The translations under genes were made by a program, and so were the position numbers. Below the pieces are notes generated by a model, which was not told where the DNA came from, searched no databases, and saw nothing but the letters and a program-made list of their open reading frames with translations. Below are positions 1,030 to 29,469 of a stretch of DNA of 64,000 bases, piece after piece. The DNA is taken from NCBI GenBank assembly GCA_020633995.1, contig JACKCO010000004.1:310243-374242 (forward strand), read 5' to 3'. Source of the stretch: Campylobacterota bacterium (GTDB lineage: Bacteria > Babelota > Babeliae > Babelales > RVW-14). How positions within the stretch are numbered: the first letter of the stretch is position 1; each line of letters begins with the position of its first letter.

Positions 1030-1030
1030 G

Positions 1031-9331: not shown

Positions 9332-9349
9332 ACGTTCCTCCCCCTGTGG

Positions 9350-11152: not shown

Positions 11153-11154
11153 TA

Positions 11155-11550: not shown

Positions 11551-11614
11551 GGGTATCACTCCTCCTGATTTTAAATAAACTTTCTTTAGCCTATAAAAAA
11601 AACATAGAATAAAT

Positions 11615-12205: not shown

Positions 12206-12246
12206 AACTCTCCTTTCTCCAAATAATTAATGTAGACTCAAATGAA

Positions 12247-12272
12247 AAGGGCGCCTATCAGAAGGCGCCCTT
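12247..12272 (-). terminator. Intrinsic terminator after frr
   Basis: 9-bp GC-rich stem aagggcgcc/ggcgccctt with an 8-nt loop. The minus strand continues ttttcattt. It lies 7 nt after the frr stop. Confidence 0.55.
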
Positions 12273-12278
12273 CAAAAA

Positions 12279-12863: not shown

Positions 12864-12875
12864 AGTAGGTATCCT

Positions 12876-13577: not shown

Positions 13578-13594
13578 AAATAACGTCCAGGTCG

Positions 13595-14476
13595 TTAGCG
13601 ACCAACACCAAAGCGAACAAAACGTTTGATAGAAATATTCAGGCCAGTTGTACGACCAATTTCTTTAAGGTATTCTTCAATGCTTTTTTTATCATCTTTG
13701 ATAAATGCTTGGTGAAGAAGGCAAACATCTTGGTAAAACTTTTTAAGTTTTCCGTCAATAATTTTTTCGAGAATATTATCTGGTTTACCGCTTGCTTTAA
13801 GTTGTTCGCGTGCAATGTCACGTTCTTTTTCTACAACTGAACTGTCGAGTTGGTCTGGTGTAATGCACATAGGTTTGGTTACAGCAATTTGCATGCAAAT
13901 GTCTTTTGCTGCTTGTGCTACAGTTTGTGCGTGCTCGCCAACTGGCTTGTCAGTTGCAAGTTCAACAAGTGCGCCAACGGTTGAGCCTGCGTGAATGTAG
14001 TTGTTAACAACGCCATTACCTTCAACTTGGTAGCGGACAAATGAGCCAACCTGAATGTTTTCGCAAATTTTTGCACACAGCTCGTTAAGTTGATCTTGTA
14101 CGGTCATCGCTTCATTATTAAACATTGGCTGCTTGTTGAGCGCTTCAACATCTGCAGGATTTTTCTCGTTAATGTGTTGTGCAATTGCCTGTCCAAAGTT
14201 TTGCATGTCTGTAGTGTTTGCAGAAAAGTCTGTTTCGCAAGTGACGTGTACAAGACTACCAGAGGTAAAGTCGTCAGCAACGTATCCTTCAACGCGTCCG
14301 TTATCAGCGGTGTTTTCAGATCGTTTTGCAGCAACGGCGGCACCTTTTTTACGAAGCAGCTCAATTGCTTTTTCAAGATCGCCGTCAGCTTCGGTTAATG
14401 CTTTTTTGCAGTCCATCATGCCAACTTGTGTTTTCTCGCGTAATTCTTTAACCAGATCCATGGTAATTTTAGACAT
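13595..14476 (-). CDS. tsf: Translation elongation factor Ts
   Basis: 293 aa. N-terminal UBA-like LVKELREKTQVGMMDCKKALTEADGDLEKAIELLRKKG. Confidence 0.92.
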   Translation of the reverse strand: MSKITMDLVKELREKTQVGMMDCKKALTEADGDLEKAIELLRKKGAAVAAKRSENTADNGRVEGYVADDFTSGSLVHVTCETDFSANTTDMQNFGQAIAQHINEKNPADVEALNKQPMFNNEAMTVQDQLNELCAKICENIQVGSFVRYQVEGNGVVNNYIHAGSTVGALVELATDKPVGEHAQTVAQAAKDICMQIAVTKPMCITPDQLDSSVVEKERDIAREQLKASGKPDNILEKIIDGKLKKFYQDVCLLHQAFIKDDKKSIEEYLKEIGRTTGLNISIKRFVRFGVGR

Positions 14477-14630
14477 TATAAATAATCTCCCTCAGCTGAT
14501 CGGTATTAGTATTTGATAAGACATTAGAATAACAATAAATCCCAATAGAAATATTATTTTCTGTTTTTAAAACTTTTAACATTAGTTTGCCAAAATCATG
14601 CAATTTTACAACAGGAGTAGCGAGTTTATT

Positions 14631-14659
14631 TTGACAAAATCGCGTTAAAACTTTATGCT
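14631..14659 (+). promoter_or_regulatory. Putative sigma70-type promoter for rpmF-plsX
   Basis: ttgaca (14631-14636), 17-nt spacer, tatgct (14654-14659), about 70 nt upstream of rpmF. Confidence 0.4.
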
Positions 14660-14728
14660 CGTTACTTAATTATTTCTTTTGAATTTTATTTTGCAAGTTA
14701 TTTTTATATTGCAGGGAGAATTTTAACC

Positions 14729-15019
14729 ATGCCAGTTCCCAAACGGAAAGTATCGAGATCACGTAGAGATAAGCGTTCTGCTAACAAAGGGTTAAGCTAC
14801 AACGCTGCAAGTGTATGTCAAACATGCCAGTCACCAGTTAATCCGCACCAAATTTGCTATGGCTGTGGTTACTACAAAGGACGTAAGGTGTTGCGTACCA
14901 AGACCGATCGCATGTATGAGCGAGGTCAAGCACGTCAAGCACAGCGAGATCAGGGGCAGGCTGCAGGCCTAGCAGCTGAGTCTGTTCAAGAGCCAACGTC
15001 ATCATCATCTGAAGAATAA
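14729..15019 (+). CDS. rpmF: Ribosomal protein L32 with an extended acidic/Gln-rich C-terminal tail
   Basis: MPVPKRKVSRSRRDKRSANK plus CxxC..CxxC zinc ribbon (CQTCQS..CYGCG). About 40 extra residues after the conserved core. Confidence 0.85.
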   Translation: MPVPKRKVSRSRRDKRSANKGLSYNAASVCQTCQSPVNPHQICYGCGYYKGRKVLRTKTDRMYERGQARQAQRDQGQAAGLAAESVQEPTSSSSEE

Positions 15020-15047
15020 TGCACATAACTGATCCGCGTTAGGTGAT

Positions 15048-16016
15048 ATGATAGCGCTTGATGTTATGGGCGGTGATTTTGCACCGGATCCAGTTATTGC
15101 TGGCGCATTGCGAGCCGCAAAGCAGTCGGTGCCGCTTGTTTTAAGTGGCCCAGCTGAGCTCATTAAGCAAAAATGCAGTGCGCTTGATCCAGGTTGGCAG
15201 CAGTACAACATACAAATCATTGATGCAGATCAAGTTATTGAAATGGATGAAGAGCCTGTCTTCGCGGTTAAAAAAAAGCAAAATGCTTCGCTTGTTAAAG
15301 CGGTAGGCGCTGTTCATTCCAAAGTAGCGCAGGCAGTTGTTTCAGCCGGTAATTCAGGTGCGCTCATGGTCGCGGCGACGTTGTTGCTTGGTAGACAGGA
15401 AGGGATTGCCCGTCCTGCGATTGGTGGATTTTTGCCAACGCAAAAAGGAGAGGTATTTGTCCTTGACTTAGGCGCCAACGTTGTATGCAGGCCGGATTAT
15501 TTTTTACAATTTGCTCATGTAGGACAAAAGTTTTTGCGAGCGAACGTCGCAATAGATGCTCCTAAAATCGGGCTCCTTTCTAATGGGCACGAATCTTCAA
15601 AGGGGACACCGGTTCTCAAACAAGCATATCAAGATTTGCAAGCGGCGTATGGACAGTCATTTATAGGTTATATAGAGCCGGGCGATGTACTTGCGCATAA
15701 GGTCGACATGGTGTTGTGTGATGGCTTTGTAGGTAACGTATTGCTTAAGACGGTAGAGGCAATGGGTGCTGTGTACACAGGATTTGTGCATGAGTCGATT
15801 GCGGGAGAACAGGATCAACAAGCAAAACATACGCTTATCAATTGGCAAGCACGATTTGACAAAGAGCTTGATGCAAGGTTAGCATTTAAGCGATGTGGAG
15901 GTGCGCTGTTACTAGGGGTACAAGGAAACGTTATAGTGTGCCATGGCAATGCAGATGCACAGGCGATTGAACGAGCGTTGCTGTTTGCACAAGGTATAGT
16001 AAACAAGGCTAGTTAA
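15048..16016 (+). CDS. plsX: Phosphate acyltransferase PlsX
   Basis: 322 aa. IALDVMGGDFAP N-terminus and GNSGALM motif. rpmF-plsX synteny. Confidence 0.9.
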   Translation: MIALDVMGGDFAPDPVIAGALRAAKQSVPLVLSGPAELIKQKCSALDPGWQQYNIQIIDADQVIEMDEEPVFAVKKKQNASLVKAVGAVHSKVAQAVVSAGNSGALMVAATLLLGRQEGIARPAIGGFLPTQKGEVFVLDLGANVVCRPDYFLQFAHVGQKFLRANVAIDAPKIGLLSNGHESSKGTPVLKQAYQDLQAAYGQSFIGYIEPGDVLAHKVDMVLCDGFVGNVLLKTVEAMGAVYTGFVHESIAGEQDQQAKHTLINWQARFDKELDARLAFKRCGGALLLGVQGNVIVCHGNADAQAIERALLFAQGIVNKAS

Positions 16017-16040
16017 GATAAACAATTCTTAGGAGAGGCT

Positions 16041-16775
16041 ATGGATTTTTCACATTTTCACATTGTTGAATGGTTTGAGCGTGCGCTTGATGCTTTAATT
16101 GCGCAGTGGAAAAAAGTTTTATTAGCTGCGGCAGTTGTGGCAGTTGTGGTAGCAGGATATTTTGGCTATCAATGGTATTTTGCACGTATGCAGCAAAAAG
16201 CTCACTATGATTTGATGCAGGTCGTTAAGGTTTTTGAGGGTAGAATTTCACGTAAAAAAAGTGCGGATGATAATTCCGATATACCAGTGTTTGCCTCTTC
16301 TGATGAAAAATGGCAAGAAGTAGAGCGTGTGTGTGATCGTGCGTTCGAGCAAAATAAAGGCTCCGGACTTGCAGGCATTTTTTTAACCTACAAGGCTGAC
16401 GCGTTGCAACGACTTGATAAGCCAGAAAAAGCAATTGAAGCTCTCAGTCAAGCAATAGAGCTTATTAAAAGCCAGGAACTTAAAGATTTTTACAGCATTA
16501 AAAATGCACTAGTAAAAATTGATAGTGGCAATGAGCGCTTCAAGCAAGAGGGTGTGCAAACACTTGTACAAGCAGCACAAACACCACATCACTATGCTCA
16601 TGAGCAAGCGCTGTATCATGTAGGGTACTATTTCTGGACGGAAAAAGATTTTGCTCAAGCAAAAAATTACTGGCAAGAGTTGTTAGTAAAATATAGCGGA
16701 AAAGATTCACCGCTACAGTCTGGTTATGCAGACTTGGTCAAACCAAAACTTAAACTTATCAGCGCAGACTTTTAG
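16041..16775 (+). CDS. Membrane-anchored TPR-like protein (YfgM-like architecture)
   Basis: A single N-terminal TM (LLAAAVVAVVVAGYFGYQWYF) followed by helical repeats. Confidence 0.4.
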   Translation: MDFSHFHIVEWFERALDALIAQWKKVLLAAAVVAVVVAGYFGYQWYFARMQQKAHYDLMQVVKVFEGRISRKKSADDNSDIPVFASSDEKWQEVERVCDRAFEQNKGSGLAGIFLTYKADALQRLDKPEKAIEALSQAIELIKSQELKDFYSIKNALVKIDSGNERFKQEGVQTLVQAAQTPHHYAHEQALYHVGYYFWTEKDFAQAKNYWQELLVKYSGKDSPLQSGYADLVKPKLKLISADF

Positions 16776-16793
16776 CATTACAGGGAAGAGCTG

Positions 16794-18218
16794 ATGAGTA
16801 CCAAAATGAGCGCGGTACGTGTACGTTTCGCGCCATCTCCAACAGGTTTTTTGCATATTGGCGGGCTTCGTACCGCCATTTTTAATTGGCTTTATGCTCG
16901 CCACCATGGCGGGCAATTTTTGCTTCGCATTGAAGACACCGACCTCGAGCGCAGCAAAGATGAGTTTAAAGATGCTCAGCTTGCGGCCCTTGAGTGGATG
17001 GGGTTTTCATCAGATGAACCATTAGTGTATCAACGAGCGCGTCAGCGTGACCATCTCCAGGCAGTGCGTGCATTGCTTGCAAGTGGTAGAGCGTATCCAT
17101 GTTTTTGTCAGCCCGAAAAAGCAGATGAAGTGGTGAGTCGCCTTGAACACGGAGTTGGGAAAAAATATGACCGCACCTGTCGAGGTAAGCCGTTTTCAGA
17201 TGATGATCTGCAAAAACCGCATGCTATTCGTTTTGCTTTGCCAGAAGATGCTACAACGGTAACGTTTACTGACAAGGTATTGGGGGATATTACAACGGAG
17301 TTTGACCAGTTGGATGATTTTGTCATTGTTCGTCGCGATGGCTCTCCGGTGTACAATTTGTGTGTGGTGCTTGATGACGTGTTCATGCGCATTACACACG
17401 TTATCAGAGGGCAGGACCATGTTTCTAATACACCCAAACAAGTGTTGTTGTATCAGGCACTTGGTTTTCAGGTGCCTCAATTTGCTCACATCCCGCTTAT
17501 TCTAGGAGCTGATGGGAGCAAGCTGAGCAAGCGGCACGCGGCTGTTTCAGTCGACCACTACCGTGAAAAAGGATACTTGCCAGACGCGTTGTGCAACTAT
17601 CTTGTGCGTCTTGGCTGGGCGCATGGTGACCGTGAAGTTTTCTCTCGCGAGGAGTTGATACAGCTTTTCTCACTTGAGCATGTTGGTAAAAGTGGGGCCG
17701 TTTTTGACGGGGCAAAGCTTGATTGGCTCAATGGTTTGTACATGCGCGAGCTAAGCGCTGCGCAGCTGATTAAGTGCATTGCTGTGCTTAATCCAGAATA
17801 TCATCAAGCTTTGCAACAGGCATGGCCGAAAAATCTTGATCAGCTTATTGACTTGTACAAAGCACGAGCAACAACGCTGTGTGATTTGTACAAGCAGGTA
17901 TATTTGTTCTCACAAGATCCACAATCGCTTGATACGGGTTTAGCAGGAAAATGGCTAACTCCAAACACACAAAAATTACTTGGTGATTTTGTAAAAGATC
18001 TTGCAACTGTTCCAGTTGGGGACCTGGAGGCAATTAAAACATTAGCTGCGCGCCTCTGCCAGCAGCATGATGTAAAACTTGTTGCGTTGGCACAGCCTCT
18101 TCGTTTAGCGTTAACAGGAGGGACTGCAAGTCCTGGGGTTTTTGAGATGATTGCATTGTTAGGTTTTGATCGAGCCCAGGTGCGCATTCAAAAATTAGTA
18201 CAAAAGCTTACACAGTAA
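16794..18218 (+). CDS. gltX: Glutamyl-tRNA synthetase
   Basis: 474 aa. Class I HIGH (PSPTGFLHIGG) and KMSKS-type (KLSKRH) motifs. Confidence 0.92.
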   Translation: MSTKMSAVRVRFAPSPTGFLHIGGLRTAIFNWLYARHHGGQFLLRIEDTDLERSKDEFKDAQLAALEWMGFSSDEPLVYQRARQRDHLQAVRALLASGRAYPCFCQPEKADEVVSRLEHGVGKKYDRTCRGKPFSDDDLQKPHAIRFALPEDATTVTFTDKVLGDITTEFDQLDDFVIVRRDGSPVYNLCVVLDDVFMRITHVIRGQDHVSNTPKQVLLYQALGFQVPQFAHIPLILGADGSKLSKRHAAVSVDHYREKGYLPDALCNYLVRLGWAHGDREVFSREELIQLFSLEHVGKSGAVFDGAKLDWLNGLYMRELSAAQLIKCIAVLNPEYHQALQQAWPKNLDQLIDLYKARATTLCDLYKQVYLFSQDPQSLDTGLAGKWLTPNTQKLLGDFVKDLATVPVGDLEAIKTLAARLCQQHDVKLVALAQPLRLALTGGTASPGVFEMIALLGFDRAQVRIQKLVQKLTQ

Positions 18219-18261
18219 ATGCGTGCAGGGGGGTGTCGGCACGTCTGCTCGGAGGAATATT

Positions 18262-19227
18262 ATGAAAGTTGGTATGATTTTTCCTGGCCAGGGGTCTCAG
18301 TTTCTTGGCATGGGTAAAGAAATTTATGATCAAGAACGCTTGGTACAAGAATTTTTTGAAGAAGCATCTATGTGCTTGGATCAAAATTTTGTACGTCTTT
18401 GTTTTGCCTCATCAGATAAAGAACTTCGTGAAACGGTCAATGCTCAAACATCAATTTTTTTGGTGAGTGCATCGTTGTATGCATTGCTTAACAAAAAGTA
18501 TAACATAACGCCAGACGTTGTTGCTGGTCACAGTTCTGGTGAATATGCAGCAATTTTTGCTGCTGGTGGTATTAGTTTTCCGGATGGGTTGTACCTGCTC
18601 AAAAAACGGTCACTGTTTATGGATGAGGCAACACGCAAATTTCCGGGCAGCATGGCTGCGGTGCTCGGGCTTTCTTTTGACAAGTTGCAGCGCTTGTGTG
18701 AGCAGTATGACCAACCAAATTCAATTGAGCATGTGCTTGAAATCGTCAACTATAATACGGCCGATCAGCTTGTTATTTCTGGCACAAGTCCAGAAATTGA
18801 AATGGTTACACATGACATCAAGGCGGAGCGGGGCAAGGTGATACCCCTCAACGTTGCCGGAGCGTTTCATTCACGACTGATGAAAGAGGCTGAAGCACAT
18901 TTTGGTATGTACATGGTTAAAGTTGATTTTAAGGATTTGGCTGTTCCATTGGTTAACAATGTGCAAGCACGTATTGTCAAAAATAACGAAGAAATCAAAC
19001 AGTCGTTGGTGCAGCAAATGAGCGGGCATGTGCAGTGGTGGCCATCGATGCATCATTTTCAAAAATGTGATTTGATCATTGAGGTTGGCCCTAACGTAAA
19101 GTTGTCAAAAATGTTGAAGCGTGTATGGCCAGAAAAAGAAATTGTTTCATTTAATACAATGGACGATCTGAAAAAGATTTTACGCTACTTTGGCAAAGAG
19201 ATAATTCATGAAGACAATCAAGAGTAG
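18262..19227 (+). CDS. fabD: Malonyl-CoA:ACP transacylase
   Basis: ATG at 18262 with ggagg 7 nt upstream. The track ORF begins at an upstream alternative start. FPGQGSQ and GHSSGEYAA motifs. Confidence 0.9.
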   Translation: MKVGMIFPGQGSQFLGMGKEIYDQERLVQEFFEEASMCLDQNFVRLCFASSDKELRETVNAQTSIFLVSASLYALLNKKYNITPDVVAGHSSGEYAAIFAAGGISFPDGLYLLKKRSLFMDEATRKFPGSMAAVLGLSFDKLQRLCEQYDQPNSIEHVLEIVNYNTADQLVISGTSPEIEMVTHDIKAERGKVIPLNVAGAFHSRLMKEAEAHFGMYMVKVDFKDLAVPLVNNVQARIVKNNEEIKQSLVQQMSGHVQWWPSMHHFQKCDLIIEVGPNVKLSKMLKRVWPEKEIVSFNTMDDLKKILRYFGKEIIHEDNQE

Positions 19228-19951
19228 CGAACCTAAAAATATTATCGTCACGGGTGGGCTGCGTGGTATTGGCTATGCCATTGCGTGTGGGCTGACGCAG
19301 CGTGGCGATCGCGTCTTTATTTTTGACTGTGCACCGTCTGATGATCAGCATGTTAGTCAGCTTGCCGGCTTGGGTATTGAGTATGTGCAAGTTGATGTTG
19401 CTGACGCAGTTTCGGTAAAGGCAGGCTTTGAACATGTCTGCGTCCAGCTGGCAGATCAAACACTTGATGGGGTGGTTAACAATGCTGGTATCACCCGAGA
19501 TAATTTGGCAGTGCGTATGAGTGAGGCAGACTGGGACCGTGTGTGTGCGGTCAACCTCAAAGGAACATTTTTATGTTCTCAGCAAGCGCTTGCACGTATG
19601 GTTCGTCAAAAAAAATCATACATTATCAACATTGCCTCCATTGTTGGCATCAAAGGAAATGCTGGTCAGGCTAACTATGTTGCCAGCAAGGCAGGTGTTA
19701 TTGGCTTGACTAAGTCACTTGCACAAGAGTATGCCAAACGTAATGTTCTTGTTAATGCCATTGCTCCCGGATTTATTACAACGCCGATGACTGATGTGCT
19801 TTCTGATCAAGTTCGTGAAAACATTTTAAACTACATTCCACTCAAACGTTTTGGCAGTCCAGAAGATGTAGCCAACCTTGTGCTTTTCTTGACGTCTGGT
19901 CGTGCTGACTATATCACTGGCCAGGTGGTTGAAGTTGCTGGTGGAATGTAA
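19208..19951 (+). CDS. fabG: 3-oxoacyl-ACP reductase
   Basis: 247 aa SDR. TGGLRGIG, NNAG and YVASKAG catalytic motifs. Overlaps the fabD end by 20 nt. Confidence 0.9.
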   Translation: MKTIKSSEPKNIIVTGGLRGIGYAIACGLTQRGDRVFIFDCAPSDDQHVSQLAGLGIEYVQVDVADAVSVKAGFEHVCVQLADQTLDGVVNNAGITRDNLAVRMSEADWDRVCAVNLKGTFLCSQQALARMVRQKKSYIINIASIVGIKGNAGQANYVASKAGVIGLTKSLAQEYAKRNVLVNAIAPGFITTPMTDVLSDQVRENILNYIPLKRFGSPEDVANLVLFLTSGRADYITGQVVEVAGGM

Positions 19952-20001
19952 TGTCTCTTCCAGAGGTGCTACTTTTTTTATCATGGGCAAAAACTACCGG
20001 C

Positions 20002-20095
20002 GTCATCCTCTGACCTGTCCTCTTGCTTGACAAGGGGATTGACCAGAGGATCTAGATCTCCGACCCCCACTTTCGTGAGGGCTGCCGGGGATGAC
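20002..20095. repeat. Two adjacent hairpin modules (one nested; one GAAA-loop type, minus orientation)
   Basis: gtcatcctctg[acctgtcctcttgcttgacaaggggattgac]cagaggatc (20002-20052), then gatctccgacccccactttcgtgagggctgccggggatgac (20055-20095). Confidence 0.85.
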
Positions 20096-20131
20096 CCTTG
20101 CTAAGAGACTAAAGCTATTTATTAAAGAAAG

Positions 20132-20644
20132 TCACTTCTTTGGTAGCGCCTCAATTGAATATTCATGACCTGTGTAATCAAAAAACTTGATTAGATCATT
20201 GTTTGATATGGTCACCGTCATATCATTTCTGAGTGGGTGATAGTTTACCTGTTCATGCTGCATCATCTCTTCATCCAAAATAACACGGACCATTTTTTGG
20301 GTATCGTTGATCACTGCAAACGGGCAAACTGAGCCGGGTTTGATGCCTAGATAGTGCATGAGATAGTCGTCGTTAGCAAACGATAAGTGCCCAAGTTCGT
20401 ACTGCTTTTGAAATTGTTTGAGGTCAAGGCGTGTGCTGTCGAGCATAACAACCAAAAAAAATTGATCTTTTTTATTTTTTAAAAAAAGATTTTTGCAGTG
20501 AGCACCTGGTAGTTTTGCTTTTAAAAATGATGCCTCGTCGGCGGTAAAGACTGGCTCATGTGTTGTGTTGGTGTAGGGGATGTCAAGTTGTTCAAAAAGC
20601 GCGAATAATTCTTGCTCTGCGTTGTCGTGGAGTGTGTGCTGCAT
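20132..20644 (-). CDS. YbaK/ProX-type aminoacyl-tRNA deacylase domain protein
   Basis: 170 aa. HCKNLFLKNKKDQFFLVV..GIKPGSVCPFAVIND..NYHPLRNDMT matches the PrdX/ProX pattern I recall. Confidence 0.75.
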   Translation of the reverse strand: MQHTLHDNAEQELFALFEQLDIPYTNTTHEPVFTADEASFLKAKLPGAHCKNLFLKNKKDQFFLVVMLDSTRLDLKQFQKQYELGHLSFANDDYLMHYLGIKPGSVCPFAVINDTQKMVRVILDEEMMQHEQVNYHPLRNDMTVTISNNDLIKFFDYTGHEYSIEALPKK

Positions 20645-20699
20645 GATTTGGTTCCTGGTTAGATGGTTACTATTTTTAGCGTTTAAGATATCAAGAATA

Positions 20700-21235
20700 T
20701 GGTGGGAGCGCTAGGTTTGCATGGATCCCGGCTCGTATCCCCTTGTCAAGCACGAGGACAGGCTTGGGATGACGACAAGGGGTTGTAATGCTGTACAACA
20801 AACGGTGTCTTCCTGCACCATGTGCTCTGCTGACGTCATCCTGAATTTATTTCATTGTTAACTCAAATCCAACAAAAAAGGTGTCATCCTCGAGTCCCAT
20901 CGAGGATCTCGTTTAAAGTGCTTTTTATTGATCAGTAGCAACGATTAGTAATGAAAATAAGATTCCCGATCGGTGTCGGGAATGACGCCTATTCAATCGC
21001 ATATGATTTGACAAGTAGCACCTTGATCAGAGTATCGTTTCAGCATCTAGCTAAGTAAGAGAGAAAAGATCCTGAAATAAATTCAGGATGACGTGAGGTA
21101 TAGCCCATGCCAACACTCCCCCTTGTCCGATACCGATCAGGGCATCCTGAACTTATTTTCCTCCTAACTAAATTTCTTAATATACGATTTTTTCCTACAA
21201 AGCCTGCAATAACTGTAGCCTTGTACATGCTGTTA
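20700..21235. repeat. Intergenic cluster of hairpin repeat modules
   Basis: Examples: 20723-20776 (nested), 20883-20908 gtcatcctcgagtcccatcgaggatc, 20961-20988 gattcccgatcggtgtcgggaatgac, 21069-21092 gatcctgaaataaattcaggatgacg. Confidence 0.85.
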
Positions 21236-21341
21236 TGTGCACAAAAGTGGTAAAAAATTATGAATGCGGTATGCTTATATGGCCTTAAGGCACGAAAAAA
21301 GTAAGGATGTATTGCACCCTCAATTGTTAGGAGATTTTACC

Positions 21342-21590
21342 ATGGCTTTCTCACAAGAAGATACGCTTCAAAAAATAAGCGCAATTATCGCAGAAAAATT
21401 AACTATTCCAGCACAAAATATCACCTCAGAGTCTACCTTTAAAGATCTTGGTGCAGACTCACTCGATATCGTTGAAATCATCATGGGATTTGAAGAAACT
21501 TTTGGCATCGAAATTAAAGATGAAGATGCGGAAAAAATTAAAACAGTTGGTGAGGCGGTAACGCTTATCCACGCTGCACGAACCAAATAA
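21342..21590 (+). CDS. acpP: Acyl carrier protein
   Basis: ATG at 21342 after ttaggag. [10 protein letters not shown] phosphopantetheine-attachment motif. 82 aa. Confidence 0.92.
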
Positions 21591-21601
21591 TACGGCTTGC
21601 T

Positions 21602-22873
21602 ATGACCAAGCAGCATGAGGTTGTTGTAACAGGCATTGGGTTAGTAACCCCGCTGGGCAATGACACACAAACAACGTGGCGCAATGCCATTGCTGGCAAA
21701 TCCGGCATTGTTGCGCTTCAGTCAGACGAATATGCTCAGCAACCACATGCAATGGCAGGGTTGGTGCGTGGTGAGCAAGAAGCGCTTGATCATCTTGTTA
21801 ATGCAAAAGATCAAGCACGCAGTCATCGATTTATGCATCTTGGGTTGCTTGCGGCCCATCAAGCACTTACTGATGCCGCACTGTTGGATGCAGACCAAGC
21901 AGTACGTGACCACATTGGTGTGTACATGGGCGTCAGCGTTGGTGCGCTTGACGTCATTTGCCAGTCGGCACTACAGGCAGACAAAGACGGTCACCACCGC
22001 CGCGTTTCGCCCTTTGCGCTGCCCAAAGCAATTACCAACATGGCACCAGCCTGGGTGAGTATGCAATGGGGTTTGAAGGGGCCGGTGCTTGCGTTTGCAA
22101 ATGCCTGTAGCTCAAGTTCAGATGCACTCGGTTTTGCATTTCGCGCTGTGCGTGACGGATACGCTCCCTACATGCTTGCTGGTGGCAGTGAGAGTTGCAT
22201 TACACCGCTTACGCTTGCAGGGTTTTACAACATGCGTGCGCTTTCTCGTTGGCCGGGCGCTCCTGAGCAGGCCAGTCGTCCGTTTGATCAAAAACGTTGT
22301 GGATTTGTTATTGCAGAAGGTGCTGCTATGCTTATGCTTGAGCGTGCAGAGTCTGCCTATGCACGCGGTGCAACTATTTACGGTACTATCAAAGGGTATG
22401 GTGCAACCAGTGATGCATTTCACATGACGGCAATGCAGCCAGATGGGCTTGGTGCGCAACGCGCCGTTTTGCAGGCGCTTGATCAAGCTGGACTGCAACC
22501 AACAGACATTGGTTATGTCAATGCGCACGGCACCTCAACGCCGATGAATGATGCAACTGAGTCAAAAATGTTTAAACGGGTGTTTGGCACTTATGCTGAC
22601 CCTGAGCAGAAAAATCACGTTCGTGTAAGTAGTACAAAATCAATGACCGGGCATATGCTTGGTGCAGCTGGTGCTGCTGAGGCTGCATTTTGTTTGCTTG
22701 CACTTCATAATGGCGTATTGCCGCCGACTATTAATTTAGACACGCCTGATTCGGCTTGCGAGCTGGACTATATTGCAAATGCTGCCTGCACGCTTTCTGT
22801 TGAACATGCGCTTTCTACCTCCTTTGGTTTTGGTGGTGGTAATGCTGCGCTTGTGTTTGGTAGGGGCAACTAA
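21602..22873 (+). CDS. fabF: 3-oxoacyl-ACP synthase II
   Basis: 423 aa. Active-site ACSSS, HGTSTP and GHMLGAAG motifs. Confidence 0.92.
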   Translation: MTKQHEVVVTGIGLVTPLGNDTQTTWRNAIAGKSGIVALQSDEYAQQPHAMAGLVRGEQEALDHLVNAKDQARSHRFMHLGLLAAHQALTDAALLDADQAVRDHIGVYMGVSVGALDVICQSALQADKDGHHRRVSPFALPKAITNMAPAWVSMQWGLKGPVLAFANACSSSSDALGFAFRAVRDGYAPYMLAGGSESCITPLTLAGFYNMRALSRWPGAPEQASRPFDQKRCGFVIAEGAAMLMLERAESAYARGATIYGTIKGYGATSDAFHMTAMQPDGLGAQRAVLQALDQAGLQPTDIGYVNAHGTSTPMNDATESKMFKRVFGTYADPEQKNHVRVSSTKSMTGHMLGAAGAAEAAFCLLALHNGVLPPTINLDTPDSACELDYIANAACTLSVEHALSTSFGFGGGNAALVFGRGN

Positions 22874-22948: not shown

Positions 22949-23314
22949 GCACATGGTTCAGCATGGCGTCGAGAAGAGTGCGTGATTCAGGATGACGTCG
23001 GTCGGGGAGTGTGTAGTTAAGGATGACGTCAGGAGTGCAACTTTTCCGTCGGGAACGACAAATTTTTTGTATGCCAATTCTCCAAGCAAGGTGTTCTTAA
23101 AAAAAGAAATGTTACTCTGAAATAGAGAGACGTTGCCTTAAACTCGGTAGAAGCATTCTGCATTTGGTAGATGCACCCTGAGTCGAGAAGACGTCACCCT
23201 GGGGGTGAGAGGTGTCACTCTCAGTTGAGGGGGGCATTCTGAGTCGAGAGAACAACGTACCTTGAACTCGGTAGACGTCACCCTGAATTTATTTCAGGGT
23301 CTTCTTGATAAAGA
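22949..23314 (+). repeat. Long direct repeat R1 flanking the GIY-YIG pair (31-nt tandem units plus a ~20-nt degenerate array plus a hairpin)
   Basis: Near-identical to 24335..24712. It ends in gtcaccctgaatttatttcagggtc (23277-23301). Confidence 0.85.
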
Positions 23315-23338
23315 TTGTTAGTCGAGGATCATCTGACT

Positions 23339-23623
23339 ATGGCTTTTTATGTTTATATTATGGCAAACAAACCACGTGGGACTTTGTACATAGGAGTTAC
23401 CAATAATTTATCACGTAGAGTTTGGCAGCATAAGCAAAAGACCCTAGATGGTTTTTCAAAGAAATATAATCTGACACGTCTTGTCTGGGCTGAAAAAATT
23501 GAATATGGCCAGCAGGCTATCGCTCGTGAAAAGCAATTAAAACGTTGGCATCGTGAGTGGAAAGTTAATTTGATTGAGTCTTTAAACCCAGAGTGGGATG
23601 ATTTGTACTCCACGTTAGTGTAG
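23339..23623 (+). CDS. GIY-YIG (URI-domain, COG2827-type) nuclease, copy 1
   Basis: MAFYVYIMANKPRGTLYIGVTNNLSRRVWQHKQ..REKQLKRWHREWKVNLIE shows the GIY-YIG core with conserved R and E. ATG at 23339, gagga 10 nt upstream. Confidence 0.85.
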   Translation: MAFYVYIMANKPRGTLYIGVTNNLSRRVWQHKQKTLDGFSKKYNLTRLVWAEKIEYGQQAIAREKQLKRWHREWKVNLIESLNPEWDDLYSTLV

Positions 23624-23747
23624 ATCCTGAAACGATACTCTGATGAAAATAGAGATCCTGAAACGAGTTCAGGATGACGTCTTTTCGTTCAGGATGACGT
23701 CATGTAAGGATAGGTGAATGTTGCGTTCTTCTGTGTGGAGGAGATTT

Positions 23748-23912
23748 TTACTCTGAATCTGGTGGTAGATGCACCCTGAGTCGAGAAGACGTCACCCTGG
23801 GGTGAGAAGGTGTCACTCTCAGTTGAGGGGGGCGCTCTGAGTCGAGAGAACAACGTACCTTGAACTCGGTAGACGTCACCCTGAACTTGTTTCAGGGTCT
23901 TCTTGATAAAGA
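23748..23912 (+). repeat. Middle copy (R2) of the ~20-nt degenerate repeat array plus hairpin
   Basis: Same unit series as 23140-23314. It ends in gtcaccctgaacttgtttcagggtc and the shared leader sequence. Confidence 0.8.
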
Positions 23913-23936
23913 TTGTTGGTCGAGGATCATCTGACT

Positions 23937-24230
23937 ATGGCTTTTTATGTTTATATTATGGCAAACAAACCACGTGGGACTTTGTATATTGGTGTTACAA
24001 GTAACCTTGCTCAAAGAGTTTTGCAGCACAAACAAAAAAAGGTGTCTGGCTTTACGCAAAAATATAATCTTTCTCAGCTTGTGTGGGTGAAAGTTAGTCT
24101 TTCTATGCAAGAGGCAATTACGCTTGAGAAACGCTTGAAGAAGTGGAACCGAAGCTGGAAAATGGAGCTCGTAGAATCAACGAATCCCAACTGGCAAGAT
24201 CTATCTCATGTGTTATTTAACATTGATTAA
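23937..24230 (+). CDS. GIY-YIG (URI-domain) nuclease, copy 2
   Basis: MAFYVYIMANKPRGTLYIGVTSNLAQRVLQHKQ..LEKRLKKWNRSWKMELVE. The first 50 nt are identical to copy 1, then it diverges. Confidence 0.85.
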   Translation: MAFYVYIMANKPRGTLYIGVTSNLAQRVLQHKQKKVSGFTQKYNLSQLVWVKVSLSMQEAITLEKRLKKWNRSWKMELVESTNPNWQDLSHVLFNID

Positions 24231-24236
24231 AATCTA

Positions 24237-24271
24237 GATCCCCGATGGGACTCGGGGATGACCCCTTTTTT
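24237..24271 (+). terminator. Hairpin module acting as a likely terminator of GIY-YIG copy 2
   Basis: gatccccga-tgggac-tcggggat, then gacccc plus T6 (24266-24271), 7 nt after the stop. Confidence 0.5.
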
Positions 24272-24334
24272 ATTGGATTTAACTTTACAGCAACACTCTG
24301 GACAGTTGTAAAACAAGTTCAGGATGACGTCAGG

Positions 24335-24712
24335 GCACATGGTTCAGCATGGCGTCGAGAAGAGTGCGTGATTCAGGATGACGTCGGTCGGGGAGTGTGT
24401 GGTTCAGGATGACGTCGGTCGGGGAGTGTGTGGTTCAGGATGACGTCGAGGGGCGCAACTTTTCCGTCGGGAACGACAAATTTTTTGTATGCCAATTCTC
24501 CAAGCAAGGTTGTTCTTAAAAAAAGAAATGTTACTTTGAAATAGAGAGACGTTGCCTTAAACTCGGTAGAAGCATTCTGCATTTGGTAGATGTACCCTGA
24601 GTCGAGAAGACGTCACCCTGGGGGTGAGAAGGTGTCACTCTCAGTTGAGGGGGGCATTCTGAGTCGAGAGAACGTACTCTGAACGAAAAGACGTCACCCT
24701 GAATTTATTTCA
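24335..24712 (+). repeat. Long direct repeat R3 (gene-less copy of R1)
   Basis: Collinear with 22949..23314 apart from one extra 31-nt unit. It ends in gtcaccctgaatttatttca. Confidence 0.85.
24372..24456 (+). repeat. 31-nt tandem repeat, about 2.7 units
   Basis: ttcaggatgacgtcggtcggggagtgtgtgg starts at 24372, 24403 and 24434 (partial). The R1 equivalent at 22986-23038 has one unit fewer. Confidence 0.85.
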
Positions 24713-24774: not shown

Positions 24775-24960
24775 GGGGGGTCATCCCCGAGGCCCATCGG
24801 GGATCTCGCTTGAAACACTTTTTATTGATCAGGCCAACGATTAGTAATGAAAACAAGATTCCCGATCAGCTCCCGTGTCAAGCACGAGCACATGGTTCAG
24901 GATGACGACACGCAAGTGCATGATCCCCAAAAAAAATCCCCACAAACAATTTAAGCCTCC
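24775..24960. repeat. Hairpin repeat cluster (composite ~110-bp unit also present at 20883-20990)
   Basis: gtcatccccgaggcccatcggggatctcgcttgaaacactttttattgatcag..cgattagtaatgaaaacaagattcccgatc parallels 20883-20975. Confidence 0.8.
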
Positions 24961-25018: not shown

Positions 25019-26329
25019 TTATTTTGTTAATGCAGCTCTGACAGCATTAACAACACTTGAAGCATTGTTTGTTACTGTAGGAACGATGTTCTTAACAGCT
25101 TCGAGTGCAGCACCACTGCGAGCAGCAGCTTGAGCGGTAAGGTTGCTCATAGCAACAGGAGCAGCGGCACGTGCAGCAGCAAGAGCAGCTATAACACCTG
25201 CAGTTGTTGGCATGCTAACGGTACCAAGTGCAACTGCGGTTGCAGCAGCTTCTGTTGCAAAACCTAGAGCACCAATACCAGTCAACGTACCAGCAAGCTT
25301 AGCAGCTTTAGTAGCGTTTTCTTGAAACTTTTCAAGCATTGTTGGTTCTACTACTGGAGCAATTGGAGCTTTAACAACAAGACCTTTAACAGCTTGTGCA
25401 AAGCCTTTAATGCTATCAAGGTTTGCGTAACCAAGACCAGCAGCAGCTATAACAGCAGCAGCAATTGCTTTTTTCTTGTGAGTTTTAACTTTGTTAGCTG
25501 TCCAGTTATAACCAGCTTTAACTTTACCAGTTGTCCATTGACCAGCTTGAGCAAGTTTGTCTTTTTTCCAGTAACCAAGACCAGCAGCCACAAGAGCAGC
25601 TGAAGCGATACCAGCATTTTTAGCTGTTACATATTCAAGACCAGCTTTACCAAAGTCAACACATGCTTGCTTGCTTGGCACAAAACCAGCAACTTTGCCC
25701 AGAGCGTTGGTAGCATTTTCTTTAGTTGCAACAGCCCTGATAGCATCAAGATTTGTGTAACCAAGGTAGCCAAGACCAGCAAGACCAGTAGCCAATGCTG
25801 TGTTTCTTACAACGTGGCTGTTGTTTTCAAGAGCAGCAATAAGAGCATCCGTGATGTGTTGCTTTTCGTTAGCTGCATTTTTTGAGTAAGCCTGTGTGAT
25901 GTTGTCAATGTAGCCAGCTTTAATTTTGTTCACAACAGTAGTGGTGAGTGCATCAACGTTGTCGAGTTTTGCAGTTTTACATTTGTTTTGAAAACCCTTA
26001 ATAACTGACGCCATACGTGGAACAAAACTACCTGACTTTGAAACATAACCAACTTTACCGGTCATTAAGCTTTTAAAGTTGTCAAGTCTTGTTGGATTCG
26101 TTTCCTTGTTGGTAAAGGTAACTTGAAGACCATCTGCTAATTCTTGTAAGAACTCGCCATCTTGCTTGTTTTCTGGTTTTTGTTGAGCAAAGTGTTCTGC
26201 AACGCTTGCAACAACTGTGTTGTTACTTGTGCAAATGTCTTGTCTGCTTTGTGTAACAGTAGCACTAACGTTTGCAAACAAACCAACTGCAATAACAGCA
26301 GCCATGATTTTTTTGTTAGGTGTAACCAT
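25019..26329 (-). CDS. Ala-rich secreted or membrane-associated protein with AGLGY repeats
   Basis: 436 aa. GGAGG Shine-Dalgarno. Signal peptide MVTPNKKIMAAVIAVGLFANVSA. Three (L/A)AGLGY(x)NLD/KKD repeats. Confidence 0.7.
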   Translation of the reverse strand: MVTPNKKIMAAVIAVGLFANVSATVTQSRQDICTSNNTVVASVAEHFAQQKPENKQDGEFLQELADGLQVTFTNKETNPTRLDNFKSLMTGKVGYVSKSGSFVPRMASVIKGFQNKCKTAKLDNVDALTTTVVNKIKAGYIDNITQAYSKNAANEKQHITDALIAALENNSHVVRNTALATGLAGLGYLGYTNLDAIRAVATKENATNALGKVAGFVPSKQACVDFGKAGLEYVTAKNAGIASAALVAAGLGYWKKDKLAQAGQWTTGKVKAGYNWTANKVKTHKKKAIAAAVIAAAGLGYANLDSIKGFAQAVKGLVVKAPIAPVVEPTMLEKFQENATKAAKLAGTLTGIGALGFATEAAATAVALGTVSMPTTAGVIAALAAARAAAPVAMSNLTAQAAARSGAALEAVKNIVPTVTNNASSVVNAVRAALTK

Positions 26330-26670
26330 AATAATAATCCTCCATAATGAAGATAAACCTACATTTACGTTTGCGCATGATCACATTAACTAACGCAGTT
26401 AAGGTGCAAGGTGAGGCTAGATAGTTTATAAAATACTACGCTTGATTACCGAGCTCCTGTAACAGCGACGTATTTTGCACCTCTAGACTGAGACCTCTCA
26501 TGTGCTATTTGCAATAGTAAATCAATAAAAAAATAGAGTCAAACGCACTTAGTAATTTTTTATTGATATTGCGCAATTTTTTTAAGAGATTTGCCAAACA
26601 AAAAAAAGTATATATACTCAATCGCACCATTGGTTCGATGTTTTATCGTTTTGCATGCAAAGGACGGGCT

Positions 26671-27570
26671 ATGCAAAAAAAATATGATCACCATCGTACA
26701 TCTCAAATTCAAACTGTAATTACATTTCTAATCGTAATTAATTCTCTGTGTTATACCAGTTTTATTATGAGTCAGGTGCAAGCTGGCCACGCGGAGTACG
26801 TGTGTCAAAAGTGTGGGTTTCAACAAAAAAAAGAGCTTGATAGTAGAGCGGCTCATACAGAGCACGTTGCGCAGCATCGTGCAGAGCAACAAAAAACAGA
26901 AAGCCCCAAGCAGCATTATGCCTATTTTCAGTCATTGCTGAGCCCTCGAGTGTGTAAAAAGTATGATCCACTGCACCCATTGGTCAGGCAGGTGCTTAAC
27001 CTGAGTTGTGCTGGCAGTGTGGCCGGGGGGCTGAGTTATGGTAGCTGTATGCTGCTTCGCGTTGCGGCCCGTTACTACTTGGATCAGCCTACAGGAAGCG
27101 TTAATCGCGATGCTGGCTTGCGCCAAGAGTTGGGCGACGAGCTTGCCCGCTGTCTTGACCAATGGGATGGTACGTCTGGCAGCGATACACCACGAACTCG
27201 ATCTGGTAGCAGGCCGGAGCGTGCAAAGCGGCAAGCACAGCTGCGCATGAAAAAAATGAACGATTTAATCGCCCTTGCAGGCGTACTGGTGTGGGTGGCT
27301 GGCACCGTGGGGATTATGTTTTGGCTCAATCGCAAAGGTGAGCCGCAACGGGAGAGCGCTGTGCAGGTGCTTGAGCGGCTTATGGACCAGTGGCTGCTGC
27401 ATCGCCCCTTTGTGCCCGAGCAGTTTGTGCAGCGATGTGACCAGCTGCATACAGCCTACCAGACGGGCAATGGGTGTTTGCAGCTGAGTGAAGATGAGGC
27501 TGAGGCGTTGGTTAAACAGATGGTGATGGTGTGTTTGGAGGCAGAGGCCGATTTTGCTACTAAATGCTAA
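26671..27570 (+). CDS. Hypothetical membrane protein (GC-richer than its surroundings)
   Basis: Start chosen at MQKKYDHH (26671). It has hydrophobic segments (TVITFLIVINSLCYTSFI and LIALAGVLVWVAGTVGIMFWL). Its 3' part is duplicated at 30179..30430. Confidence 0.55.
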   Translation: MQKKYDHHRTSQIQTVITFLIVINSLCYTSFIMSQVQAGHAEYVCQKCGFQQKKELDSRAAHTEHVAQHRAEQQKTESPKQHYAYFQSLLSPRVCKKYDPLHPLVRQVLNLSCAGSVAGGLSYGSCMLLRVAARYYLDQPTGSVNRDAGLRQELGDELARCLDQWDGTSGSDTPRTRSGSRPERAKRQAQLRMKKMNDLIALAGVLVWVAGTVGIMFWLNRKGEPQRESAVQVLERLMDQWLLHRPFVPEQFVQRCDQLHTAYQTGNGCLQLSEDEAEALVKQMVMVCLEAEADFATKC

Positions 27571-27653
27571 GTTAACTTTACATATAGTTCTGCTAGAAGC
27601 AAAATGTGCGCAATGCACGGATGAAAAATGCTTACTGATCGGCAAAAATACTG

Positions 27654-29379: not shown

Positions 29380-29469
29380 GATTTTTAGATCTCCTTGATC
29401 GTGTAGAAACATAAAGCATGAGTATAGCATATGGCCTGTACCCAGCCAAACGTTTGTCGGGGGCGGCTA

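Follow-up and report, generated by a model that had tools for sequence, protein, structure and literature searches.

Clustered NGTC-tagged hairpin repeats beside small GIY-YIG genes in a 64,000-nt Babelota sequence are probable recognition sites of Ssn-family single-strand endonucleases

The window, which is the whole 64,000-nt stretch analysed here, contains 28 intact copies of a small hairpin unit, all of them (28/28) intergenic and located between 20.6 and 60.7 kb, with extended, truncated and half units beside them. An intact unit consists of NGTC, an 8-bp stem closed by a loop of 4-6 nt, and a C directly after the stem. A regular-expression scan for GTC, an 8-bp stem with at most two G.T pairs, a 4-6-nt loop and C found 26 units, compared with 0.23 on average and never more than 2 in 100 dinucleotide shuffles. 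A covariance model trained on these 26 units recovered 28 at 28.8-40.9 bits, and at the same sites the opposite strand scored at most 13.6 bits. The two units added by the model have an unpaired T at stem position 1. The motif GTCAYCC occurs 46 times in the window versus 7.2 expected, and GATCCYSRAN{5,6}TYSRGGATGAC occurs nine times versus 0 expected. An earlier note on this DNA had described a window-wide superfamily of hairpins whose stems are constant at the base and covary at the top; this description is borne out, and all 13 clusters that it listed contain units or degenerate relatives. By its genes the window resembles part of the chromosome of a Pseudomonadota-like bacterium, and many of its ORFs are orphans.

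The first cluster opens with an extended unit at 20001-20056 (+), in which CGTC precedes an outer stem ATCCTCTG/CAGAGGAT around an inner 9-bp hairpin with the loop CTTGA (fold -11.8 kcal/mol). The pair tctg/caga previously quoted for 20002-20052 is correct and belongs to this extended double hairpin. At 20052-20096 (-) a long-loop unit follows; it is partly decayed and encloses a GAAA hairpin (CCCTCAC-GAAA-GTGGGGG). At 20716-20776 (-) lies a degenerate extended (double-hairpin) unit whose outer stem has A.C on the tag strand, and at 20832-20857 (+) a truncated unit, GACGTCATCCTGAATTTATTTCAttg, without a right arm. The intact unit at 20882-20911 (+; TGTC, stem ATCCTCGA, 6-nt loop, tail CTC; 35.4 bits) forms a tags-outward pair with that at 20958-20987 (-; CGTC, stem ATTCCCGA, 6-nt loop; 36.8 bits). 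They are followed by an intact unit at 21065-21093 (-; CGTC, stem ATCCTGAA, 5-nt loop; 34.7 bits) and by a degenerate remnant at 21137-21160 (+) that has no tag and only the left arm ATCCTGAA.

Two genes, ssn1 and ssn2, are located inside repeat clusters in the region of 22.9-25.0 kb, where modules are repeated at 88-98% identity. Half-units with tag and left arm only (TTCAGGATGACG / TTAAGGATGACG) occupy 22970-23030 (-). The first gene, ssn1 (23339-23623, +), encodes a predicted 94-aa single-domain GIY-YIG nuclease of the Ssn family (Pfam GIY-YIG E 3.8e-15). It has an intact unit on its 5' side at 23276-23304 (+; CGTC, ACCCTGAA; stem end 38 nt before the ATG) and another on its 3' side at 23651-23679 (-; CGTC, ATCCTGAA; covariance model). 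The second gene, ssn2 (23937-24230, +), encodes a predicted 97-aa GIY-YIG nuclease (Pfam E 2.1e-16) and is preceded by an intact unit at 23874-23902 (+; CGTC, ACCCTGAA; covariance model) and followed by one at 24234-24263 (-; GGTC, ATCCCCGA; covariance model and fold). Each gene is thus bracketed by inverted units whose tags face outward. A tandem array of half-units with a period of 31 nt (tag and left arm ATCCTGAA, without right arm) lies at 24318-24447 (-). The intact unit at 24779-24808 (+; GGTC, ATCCCCGA) opens a doublet of ~105 nt that is homologous to 20880-20990 and whose partner unit is decayed. The two small GIY-YIG genes, absent from the earlier note, are key to the system.

Between 29.5 and 32 kb, intact units are found at 29501-29530 (-; CGTC, ATACCGGC, tail CCA), 29637-29665 (-; CGTC, ATCCTGAA) and 29846-29874 (+; GGTC, GCCCCCGG, with two G.T on the tag strand), with an extended double-hairpin unit (outer stem ATCCTGAA, insert of 30 nt) at 29683-29737 (+). 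Two tags-outward pairs follow, one formed by 30023-30051 (+; CGTC, GCTCCGGG) and 30084-30113 (-; CGTC, ATACCGGC), the other by 31815-31844 (+; CGTC, ACCCTGGA; 40.9 bits) and 31883-31912 (-; CGTC, ATACCGGC; covariance model).

The next cluster contains a decayed unit at 38325-38372 (-) with a long loop that encloses a GAAA hairpin, the tag GATC and three A.C on the tag strand, an intact unit at 38406-38435 (+; CGTC, ACCCTGGA; 40.9 bits), and an extended double-hairpin unit at 38478-38533 (-) with outer stem ATACCGG and inner stem CCTCTTG/CAAGGGG. A third ssn copy has been deleted here. Its remnant at 38639-38740 (-) comprises the C-terminal 34 codons, 97% identical to ssn2, and is likewise bracketed by intact units, on the left at 38603-38632 (+; AGTC, ATCCCCGA) and on the right at 38784-38813 (-; GGTC, ATCCCCGA). 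A decayed long-loop unit (TGTC, ATTCCCGA...TCGAAAAT) lies at 38967-39012 (+).

Further along, the unit at 40395-40424 (+; AGTC, ATTCCCGA; covariance model) forms a tags-outward pair with that at 40489-40516 (-), which is of the canonical dRS3/NTS type (CGTC GTTCCCGC gtag GCGGGAAT CCAG). The intact unit at 40586-40614 (+; CGTC, TTCCCCGA) is the sole match to the published SRM search pattern. The tags-outward doublet at 46397-46473 (units 46397-46425, +, and 46445-46473, -) can fold as a single long hairpin in the manner of a REPIN (-27.1 kcal/mol, z -9.8). A single intact unit is present at 50808-50836 (+; CGTC, ACTCCGGG; 38.6 bits), and a second doublet of this orientation at 53799-53906 (units 53799-53827, +, and 53877-53906, -; covariance model). 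The last cluster contains an extended double-hairpin unit at 60230-60284 (+; outer stem ATCCCCGA, insert of 30 nt) and a tags-outward doublet at 60419-60493, composed of 60419-60447 (+) and 60466-60493 (-), the latter of the dRS3/NTS type GTTCCCGC-gaag-GCGGGAAT.

The sequence around the stem is highly constant. Among the 28 units the tag is CGTC in 17, GGTC in six, TGTC in three and AGTC in two, so that GTC is invariant, and the first base 3' of the palindrome is C in 28/28. The GAC(G) flank that had been described as conserved is indeed a constant one-sided flank; its precise form is NGTC, always with a C after the palindrome. The 3' tail reads CCA in 14/28 units and CTN in the other 14/28. 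Loops are of 4 nt (two units), 5 nt (13) or 6 nt (13), and five further units have structured inserts of 30-31 nt. The stem is 8 bp in all units. Across the 24 distinct rows of the training alignment, stem position 1 has A-T 17 times and G.T seven times, whereas T-A (18 times) and C-G (six times) are found at position 2. Double (compensatory) changes occur at 6/8 stem pairs (44 cells versus 13 in shuffles); the alignment was itself selected for pairing, which makes a percentage of paired positions circular, and covariation is used here only to describe the diversity of stems. The previously quoted stem-top pairs were found to be correct at 23654-23681 (tgaa/ttca), 24780-24805 (ccga/tcgg), 20883-20908 (tcga/tcga), 38407-38433 (tgga/tcca) and 60420-60446 (ccgg/tcgg, with G.T). 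The change from T-A to C-G between 20883-20908 and 38604-38629 is likewise a genuine double change; the sequences around the two sites are homologous, with 70% identity along 56 nt (repeat family D19).

We also considered the strand and the type of nucleic acid in which the hairpins would form. As ssDNA hairpins the units fold at -6.2 to -7.7 kcal/mol. Intact units in the window have 12 G.T and 0 A.C on the tag strand, and over all loci the numbers are 63 and 35, although these are not independent events since related copies share them. The inner stem of extended units retains T.G on the tag strand. Over all copies, however, the G.T oppositions do not share one strand, several decayed copies (20725, 38331, 38968) having A.C on the tag strand. 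Such oppositions, the intergenic position of the hairpins, often downstream of genes, and the mRNA stabilisation proposed for REPs of other bacteria (PMC3733652) would suit elements that act mainly as RNA, as 3'-end hairpins, mRNA stabilisers or small RNAs selected for transcript folding that tolerates G-U. We consider this improbable. Fifteen intact units are on the + strand and 13 on the - strand, most of them in inverted pairs, with no fixed relation to transcription, and no T-tract follows them. A search of the whole window with the Rfam covariance models at their gathering thresholds gave no match, and a tRNA/tmRNA scan of the window found none. An RNA role does not predict the linkage to ssn genes across phyla described below, and a nuclease that binds no RNA (PMC11893778) accounts for the conservation of the unpaired GTC and C. 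The suggestion of structure at the RNA or single-strand level therefore holds for the single strand; RNA is less likely than ssDNA because the partner enzyme that has been characterised binds neither RNA nor dsDNA and because units occur in both orientations.

The assignment of the two predicted proteins to the Ssn family comes from their sequence. The ssn1 and ssn2 proteins are 63% identical to each other and align without gaps to the N. gonorrhoeae SsnA orthologue, with 47% identity (E 1e-31) and 53% identity (E 4e-36), respectively. The Pfam GIY-YIG domain covers residues 3-77 of the 94- and 97-aa proteins, which contain this single domain. Residues Y6, Y17 and E64 are identical in the window proteins and in the gonococcal orthologue; mutation of these residues abolished the nuclease activity of SsnA (PMC11893778). 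The gonococcal reference is the only homologue in an N. gonorrhoeae chromosome and is flanked by NTS repeats. The PDB contained no relative of the GIY-YIG nuclease, and NCBIfam no model specific to it.

The association of gene and repeat was examined in 80 metagenomic loci chosen by protein alone. A unit lies within 300 bp of the gene in 60/80 loci, and on both sides in 40/80. Unit density over these loci is 3.09 per kb near the gene versus 0.11 per kb further off, a 27-fold enrichment. Within 70 nt of the gene the tag points outward in 34/41 upstream and 39/43 downstream units. With the published SRM pattern, a unit is found within 500 bp in 34/80 loci and the enrichment is 13-fold. For comparison, 71% of Ssn homologues were reported to be flanked by motifs, 42% on both sides (PMC11893778). 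In the metagenomic loci cassettes occur in unrelated contexts, and homology stops at the outward tags. A pattern scan of a genome collection detected the same hairpins, with loops CTTGT, CTTGA and TTTAT, in very diverse phyla. Under uniform composition ~140 matches to this pattern are expected by chance in the whole collection; the matches are non-random nevertheless, because 134 among the 140 matches listed have perfectly complementary arms and 97 among the 140 share three loop sequences.

Two other explanations involve different enzymes. According to one of them, site-specific recombinases, IS110-family elements or filamentous phages use the units as attachment or target sites, as reported for Neisseria dRS3; this would be the primary role of the units and the reason for their maintenance, with no relation to their GIY-YIG neighbours. 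A phage recombinase is known to target dRS3 (PMC11893778), in several genera REPs serve as IS targets (PMC3733652), and insertions into the loop could have left the nested and half units behind as scars. We regard this explanation as very unlikely, since it accounts neither for the multiplication of the units nor for their enrichment beside ssn genes; furthermore, no unit in the window is interrupted by an IS or prophage, and the sole recombinase gene (60657-61643) resembles housekeeping XerC/D. A classical REP/REPIN, moved by an IS200/IS605-type Y1 HUH transposase (RAYT), would also be a short hairpin with a conserved unpaired 5' tetranucleotide, arranged in inverted doublets and intergenic clusters. 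Here, however, the tag is CGTC-like rather than GTAG, the ~45 main ORFs scanned in the window include no Y1 transposase, and the gene bracketed by units encodes a predicted GIY-YIG nuclease; Di Nocera et al. (PMC3733652) found no adjacent transposase beside CGTC repeats in any species. The chance that a RAYT moves these units appears to us extremely small.

We believe that the modules are most probably CGTC-tagged REPs of the NTS-like or SRM kind and serve as recognition sites of Ssn-family GIY-YIG ssDNA endonucleases. The linkage of gene and repeat, the unit anatomy and the homology were observed directly in this analysis. The earlier note had found no match to known repeats, RPE among them, but the modules are built like members of the CGTC-tagged REP superfamily (PMC3733652), to which Rickettsia RPE-4/-6 and Neisseria dRS3 belong, and correspond to NTS/SRM motifs (PMC11893778), so that the claim of novelty falls. 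A literature search with the raw sequence strings of the modules returned primer coincidences only. We also dropped linkage to a GIY-YIG gene as a new finding, as it had already been reported by Chenal et al. 2025 (PMC11893778).

Ssn nucleases bind their hairpins only in ssDNA and only in one of the two strands, and cleave immediately 5' of the tag (PMC11893778). Mutagenesis has shown that the three nucleotides 5' of the palindrome matter for cleavage by SsnA and the C 3' of it for binding (PMC11893778); this GTC and C are kept in 28/28 window units. By analogy, the hairpins would form once the tagged strand becomes single-stranded. Ssn would then bind the hairpin on one strand only, as its homology to the Neisseria and Wolbachia enzymes suggests, and binding would require the C directly 3' of the palindrome. 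Cleavage would fall a few nucleotides 5' of the tag and depend on the GTC directly 5' of the palindrome. The stem top would need only to stay paired within a class, different classes probably being matched to different Ssn specificities. A constant tag, stem base and 3' C combined with a variable stem top would thus be explained by the requirements of Ssn for binding and cleavage. We infer from the characterised enzymes that those of the window cut the window units. The host-level effect may resemble the restriction of incoming or recombining ssDNA, which has been demonstrated only in N. meningitidis (PMC11893778).

The window has ~14 stem sequences and two ssn genes. Meningococcal SsnA is inactive when the palindrome sequence is changed with its structure preserved (PMC11893778). 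Because of this sequence requirement and the number of stems, two enzymes probably cannot serve all stem classes, and one has to postulate either further paralogues elsewhere in the genome or units that are dead. The occurrence of ~14 stem tops beside two paralogues 63% identical to each other may also represent a readable code of stem-top specificity.

The arrangement of the units suggests how they multiplied. Twenty of the 28 are in tags-outward pairs, of which three bracket ssn1, ssn2 and the deleted copy and seven are short doublets with spacers of 18-64 nt. We infer that the units multiplied as derivatives of ssn cassettes, the tags-outward doublets being cassettes minus the gene. A more tentative proposal is that ssn cassettes are autonomous mobile elements driven by the GIY-YIG ssDNA nuclease, with doublets and single hairpins as their non-autonomous progeny; we consider this possible but rather doubtful. 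It is suggested by the presence, in one window, of what may be three stages of the same element, namely intact cassettes (23276-23679 and 23874-24263), an internally deleted one with both brackets (38603-38813) and the seven doublets, and by the end of cassette homology at the outward tags. In PMC11893778 mobility of the cassette was raised merely as a hypothesis. If true, mobile ssn cassettes would be a transposon class with a new chemistry.

These results extend the Ssn/SRM system to variants that the published motif misses, including extended double hairpins, units with 6-nt loops and the stem tops TGAA and CCGA. Surveys of genomes with the SRM motif therefore probably undercount the family. 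The intact, deleted and gene-less cassettes together form a convenient natural test case for the multiplication of CGTC repeats. Where Ssn is to be used as a tool for ssDNA, the two diverged paralogues, together with several candidate target classes, offer ready-made specificity variants. The repeats also explain assembly breaks at these loci; in assemblies of public reads (SRR12358675, SRR12358676) the contigs with fabF are only ~1.5 kb long.

Among known systems, the NIMEs of Neisseria, bounded by dRS3 and compared here by their literature description, are likewise long mosaics between genes, made of hairpin units in alternation with other repeats, but the interleaved module sequences are unrelated. 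GTAG REPs/REPINs with RAYT likewise combine a small dedicated nuclease that recognises a single-strand hairpin with an unpaired tag, a gene located between inverted copies, and non-autonomous doublets scattered in intergenic DNA. The window modules are not members of that group: its tag is GTAG instead of NGTC, and its enzyme is a HUH tyrosine transposase, whereas the window genes predict the GIY-YIG fold and chemistry.

The CGTC-tagged REPs (CGTC-1 to -4; Di Nocera, De Gregorio & Rocco, BMC Genomics 2013; PMC3733652), which include Neisseria dRS3 and Rickettsia RPE-4/RPE-6, share with the window units the unpaired tag CGTC or TGTC, stems of 8-9 bp starting A-T, T-A, short loops, a CCA-like tail and an arrangement mainly as inverted dimers, and they too form several families in one genome and are spread over several phyla. 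Their first two stem positions are almost always A-T and T-A, and tag variants described for them are TGTC or CCTC (PMC3733652), whereas the window also has GGTC and AGTC. Their loops were described as 4-5 nt, in contrast to 6 nt in half of the window units; the window units are heavily clustered, which according to that paper is rare outside Neisseria and Wolbachia; and no dedicated enzyme was found there, whereas a GIY-YIG partner is adjacent in the window.

The closest system is NTS/SRM with Ssn (cd10448 GIY-YIG; Chenal et al., Nat Commun 2025, PMC11893778). The window differs in its stems, which are mostly ATCCTGAA, ATCCCCGA, ATACCGGC, ACCCTGGA and similar, in its loops of 5-6 nt, and in its extended double-hairpin units and half-unit arrays. 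The published pattern HGTCWYN(0-2)YYVSBRHN(0-5)WNVSBRGN(0-2)RNCYNB fits only 1/28 window units, that at 40586-40614 (0.13 in shuffles); the mismatches are at loop-edge letters and at a G before GTC, and leave the tag-stem-C architecture unaffected. At the N. gonorrhoeae ssnA locus the flanking NTS tags face the gene, whereas the window brackets face outward. The window host is uncultured, and its predicted enzymes are known from sequence. The shared features are an oriented hairpin with C directly 3' and GTC directly 5' of the palindrome, intergenic copies that number in the hundreds and cluster around genes, and a single-domain GIY-YIG gene of ~94 aa with motifs on both sides. In addition, the window units at 40489-40516 and 60466-60493 show the dRS3/NTS core GTTCCCGC-N4-GCGGGAAT-CCAG itself.

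The sequence GTCAYCC occurs 46 times in the window against 7.2 expected, and a fuller pattern of the motif 9 times against 0 expected. A scan of the window for GTC followed by an 8-bp stem with a 4-6-nt loop and a C returned 26 hairpin units, compared with 0.23 in dinucleotide shuffles, and a covariance model trained on these units found 28 in the window at 28.8-40.9 bits. Since the same 28 sites scored at most 13.6 bits on the opposite strand, the units are clearly oriented. All 28 are intergenic and lie within 20.6-60.7 kb. To the right of position 19900, 13 of the 19 intergenic regions of at least 150 bp contain at least one unit or GTCAYCC; the five regions of this size in positions 1-19900 (∼3 kb in total) contain neither. 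Without exception, the units share the GTC tag, C-G as stem pair 4, a T in stem pair 1 and a C that follows the palindrome. Double changes were found at six of the eight stem pairs, a count that describes diversity and is no independent test since the units were chosen for pairing. Folded as ssDNA, the units have energies of -6.2 to -7.7 kcal/mol. All coordinates and stem pairs quoted in the earlier note were correct when rechecked in the window.

The region 20700-21235 is intergenic, with a ybaK-like gene on the minus strand (20132-20644) on one side and acpP on the other. It holds three intact units, at 20882-20911 (plus), 20958-20987 (minus) and 21065-21093 (minus). Also present are an extended unit that has degenerated (20716-20776), a truncated one (20832-20857) and a unit remnant (21137-21160). 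The fatty-acid synthesis cluster at 15048-22873 (plsX ... fabD-fabG / acpP-fabF) is broken between fabG and acpP, the break being occupied by the ybaK-like gene, in reverse orientation, together with the two hairpin clusters at 20.0 kb and 20.7-21.2 kb. The only public contigs with the exact fabF of the window come from two read assemblies, L121 (SRR12358676) and L122 (SRR12358675); they are ∼1.5 kb long and end near fabF, consistent with short-read assembly breakage at the flanking repeat clusters. The source bacterium is probably uncultured.

In five extended units (20001-20056, 29683-29737, 60230-60284, 38478-38533 and the degenerate one at 20716-20776) an outer 8-bp stem, perfect or nearly so, encloses a 30-31-nt insert, which forms a second stem with a CTTGA loop common to all five. 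Three partly decayed units carry an inner GAAA hairpin (20052-20096, 38325-38372 and 38967-39012). Half-units made up of the tag and left arm only (CGTCATCCTGAA plus 19 nt) form tandem arrays with a 31-nt period at 22970-23030 and 24318-24447; with the right arm absent, they cannot fold into the hairpin.

The strand-level signal in the stem oppositions is modest. On the tag strand, intact window units have 12 G.T versus 0 A.C oppositions and all loci together 63 versus 35, both counts including copies related by descent; A.C appears on this strand in several decayed copies. An RNA-level role, which the earlier note had considered along with single-strand structure, may exist as a side effect, but it leaves unexplained the invariant unpaired nucleotides, the occurrence of both orientations and the linkage to ssn genes described below. 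A check of Rfam membership gave no family match for the window.

Two small ORFs, ssn1 (23339-23623) and ssn2 (23937-24230), lie inside the 22.9-25.0 kb cluster, a mosaic of repeated modules with 88-98% identity. They encode single-domain GIY-YIG proteins that are 63% identical to each other. At both genes the upstream unit is on the plus strand and the downstream unit on the minus strand, with tags outward (23276-23304 and 23651-23679 for ssn1; 23874-23902 and 24234-24263 for ssn2). A third copy consists of the C-terminal 34 codons (38639-38740), 97% identical to ssn2 and lying between two inverted units (38603-38632 and 38784-38813). Tags-outward pairs with the geometry of these ssn cassettes take in 20 of the 28 units; seven of the pairs form short doublets, spaced by 18-64 nt, and one of these doublets folds into a long REPIN-like hairpin.

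An N. gonorrhoeae chromosome (PLSDB record) has a single homologue, flanked by repeats known as NTS. The Ssn1 and Ssn2 proteins are 47% and 53% identical to it, end-to-end and ungapped, and share its Y6, Y17 and E64. SsnA and homologous proteins of CDD family cd10448 (∼94 aa) bind hairpins of this kind solely as ssDNA and on one strand, binding neither RNA nor dsDNA, and the cut falls a few nucleotides to the 5′ side of the motif; cutting depends most on the trinucleotide 5′ of the palindrome, and binding on the C just 3′ of it (PMC11893778). By homology, Ssn1 and Ssn2 would bind the tagged strand in its single-stranded state and introduce a nick on the 5′ side of the tag. A RAYT-type mechanism fails, since the tag does not fit it and no Y1 transposase is present among the main ORFs of the window.

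Several other features lie among the clusters. The segments 27140-27244 and 27442-27595 recur as duplicates at 30178-30282 and 30276-30429 (97-98% identity), the second copy (30178-30429) lacking ∼200 bp. ORF 26563-27570 overlaps the first copy in its 3′ part, and the second copy adjoins the 29.5-30.2 kb hairpin cluster. Two ATPase genes between hairpin clusters, 27820-29430 and 30465-31634, may be mobile or defence-like: one product has AAA_35 with a PD-(D/E)XK nuclease tail, the other AAA_14/DUF4143. A 1247-aa ORF (32481-36224, minus) has no Pfam match and contains GCC-rich 9-nt tandem repeats at 32862-32985. Further large ORFs without a family match (25019-26329, 36406-38061, 39081-40184, 40708-42468 and 54236-57013) suggest a lineage rich in orphan proteins.

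Outside the window, a search for an exact pattern in one genome per species gave at least 120 loci. The matches listed came from widely separated phyla: candidate-phyla-radiation bacteria, Bacteroidota, sphingomonads, spirochaetes and Melainabacteria, among others. Although the pattern demanded neither, 134 of the 140 matches listed have perfectly complementary arms and 97 have the loop CTTGT, CTTGA or TTTAT. The hairpin is thus pan-bacterial. An ssn homologue adjoins the hairpins in five of the 120 hairpin-selected loci listed, from Rhizobiaceae, Bacteroidota and candidate-phyla-radiation bacteria. We also scanned metagenomes with an alignment built from these homologues, which gave 80 loci picked by protein similarity alone. 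A unit lies within 300 bp of the gene in 60 of the 80, and on both sides in 40; there are 3.09 units per kb close to the gene versus 0.11 per kb elsewhere. For units within 70 nt of the gene, the tag points outward in 34 of 41 upstream and 39 of 43 downstream. The analysis shows linkage of hairpin and gene across phyla. The published pattern for "Ssn-related motifs" (SRM), a class broader than NTS (PMC11893778), shows 13-fold enrichment next to the metagenomic homologues, which ties this protein set to the published family.

Three related metagenomic cassettes lie in unrelated contexts, and their homology stops at the outward tags. In two of them (L161 2380-2440 and L188 4970-5030) the upstream unit is separated from the start codon by an additional segment of ∼53 nt that the third (L146) lacks. 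This segment is one unit with its tail-side flank, so the cassettes differ by the presence or absence of a single unit. The ssn cassette may be a mobile element with gene-less derivatives, a reading that the pairing geometry and homology limits fit but do not prove. The units could instead be targets of recombinases or insertion sequences, a role known for dRS3; this would leave their multiplication and the ssn linkage unexplained. The window is of interest for its intact, deleted and gene-less cassettes side by side and for ∼14 stem sequences alongside two diverged nucleases.

The earlier note had proposed a novel hairpin family. The family is real, covarying and relevant at the single-strand level, but it is not novel. 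Its anatomy is that of the CGTC-tagged REP superfamily, defined by Di Nocera, De Gregorio and Rocco in 2013 (PMC3733652) and recorded there in five phyla, with an unpaired CGTC/TGTC tag, an 8-9-bp stem beginning A-T, T-A, a 4-5-nt loop and a CCA-like tail. These REPs, among which Neisseria dRS3 and Rickettsia RPE-4/-6 were placed, are mostly inverted dimers and "apparently lack a dedicated transposase" (PMC3733652). The window units agree in tag, stem and tail; half of them have 6-nt loops. The linkage of ssn genes to such repeats is likewise published (Chenal et al., Nat Commun 2025, PMC11893778). The NTS is a 28-nt oriented element containing dRS3, CGTCATTCCCGCGMAVGCGGGAATCYRG; a motif lies near 71% of homologues, and 42% have one on both sides; and in N. 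meningitidis the system reduces transformation by NTS-containing DNA (PMC11893778). Those authors likened the NTS-ssnA-NTS layout to an insertion sequence, with domestication or mobility as their hypothesis (PMC11893778). No window unit departs from GTC or the 3′ C. The degenerate SRM pattern matches only one of the units, with mismatches at loop-edge positions and at the G before GTC. In the gonococcal ssnA locus (L203, 420-1080) the NTS nearest the gene have their CGTC tags toward it, unlike the window and ∼85% of the metagenomic loci, where tags point outward. Because of the homology to the gonococcal protein, the invariant GTC and 3′ C, and the SRM enrichment beside homologues, the window holds a bona fide Ssn/CGTC-REP system, its repeats being variants that lie beyond the current search motif.
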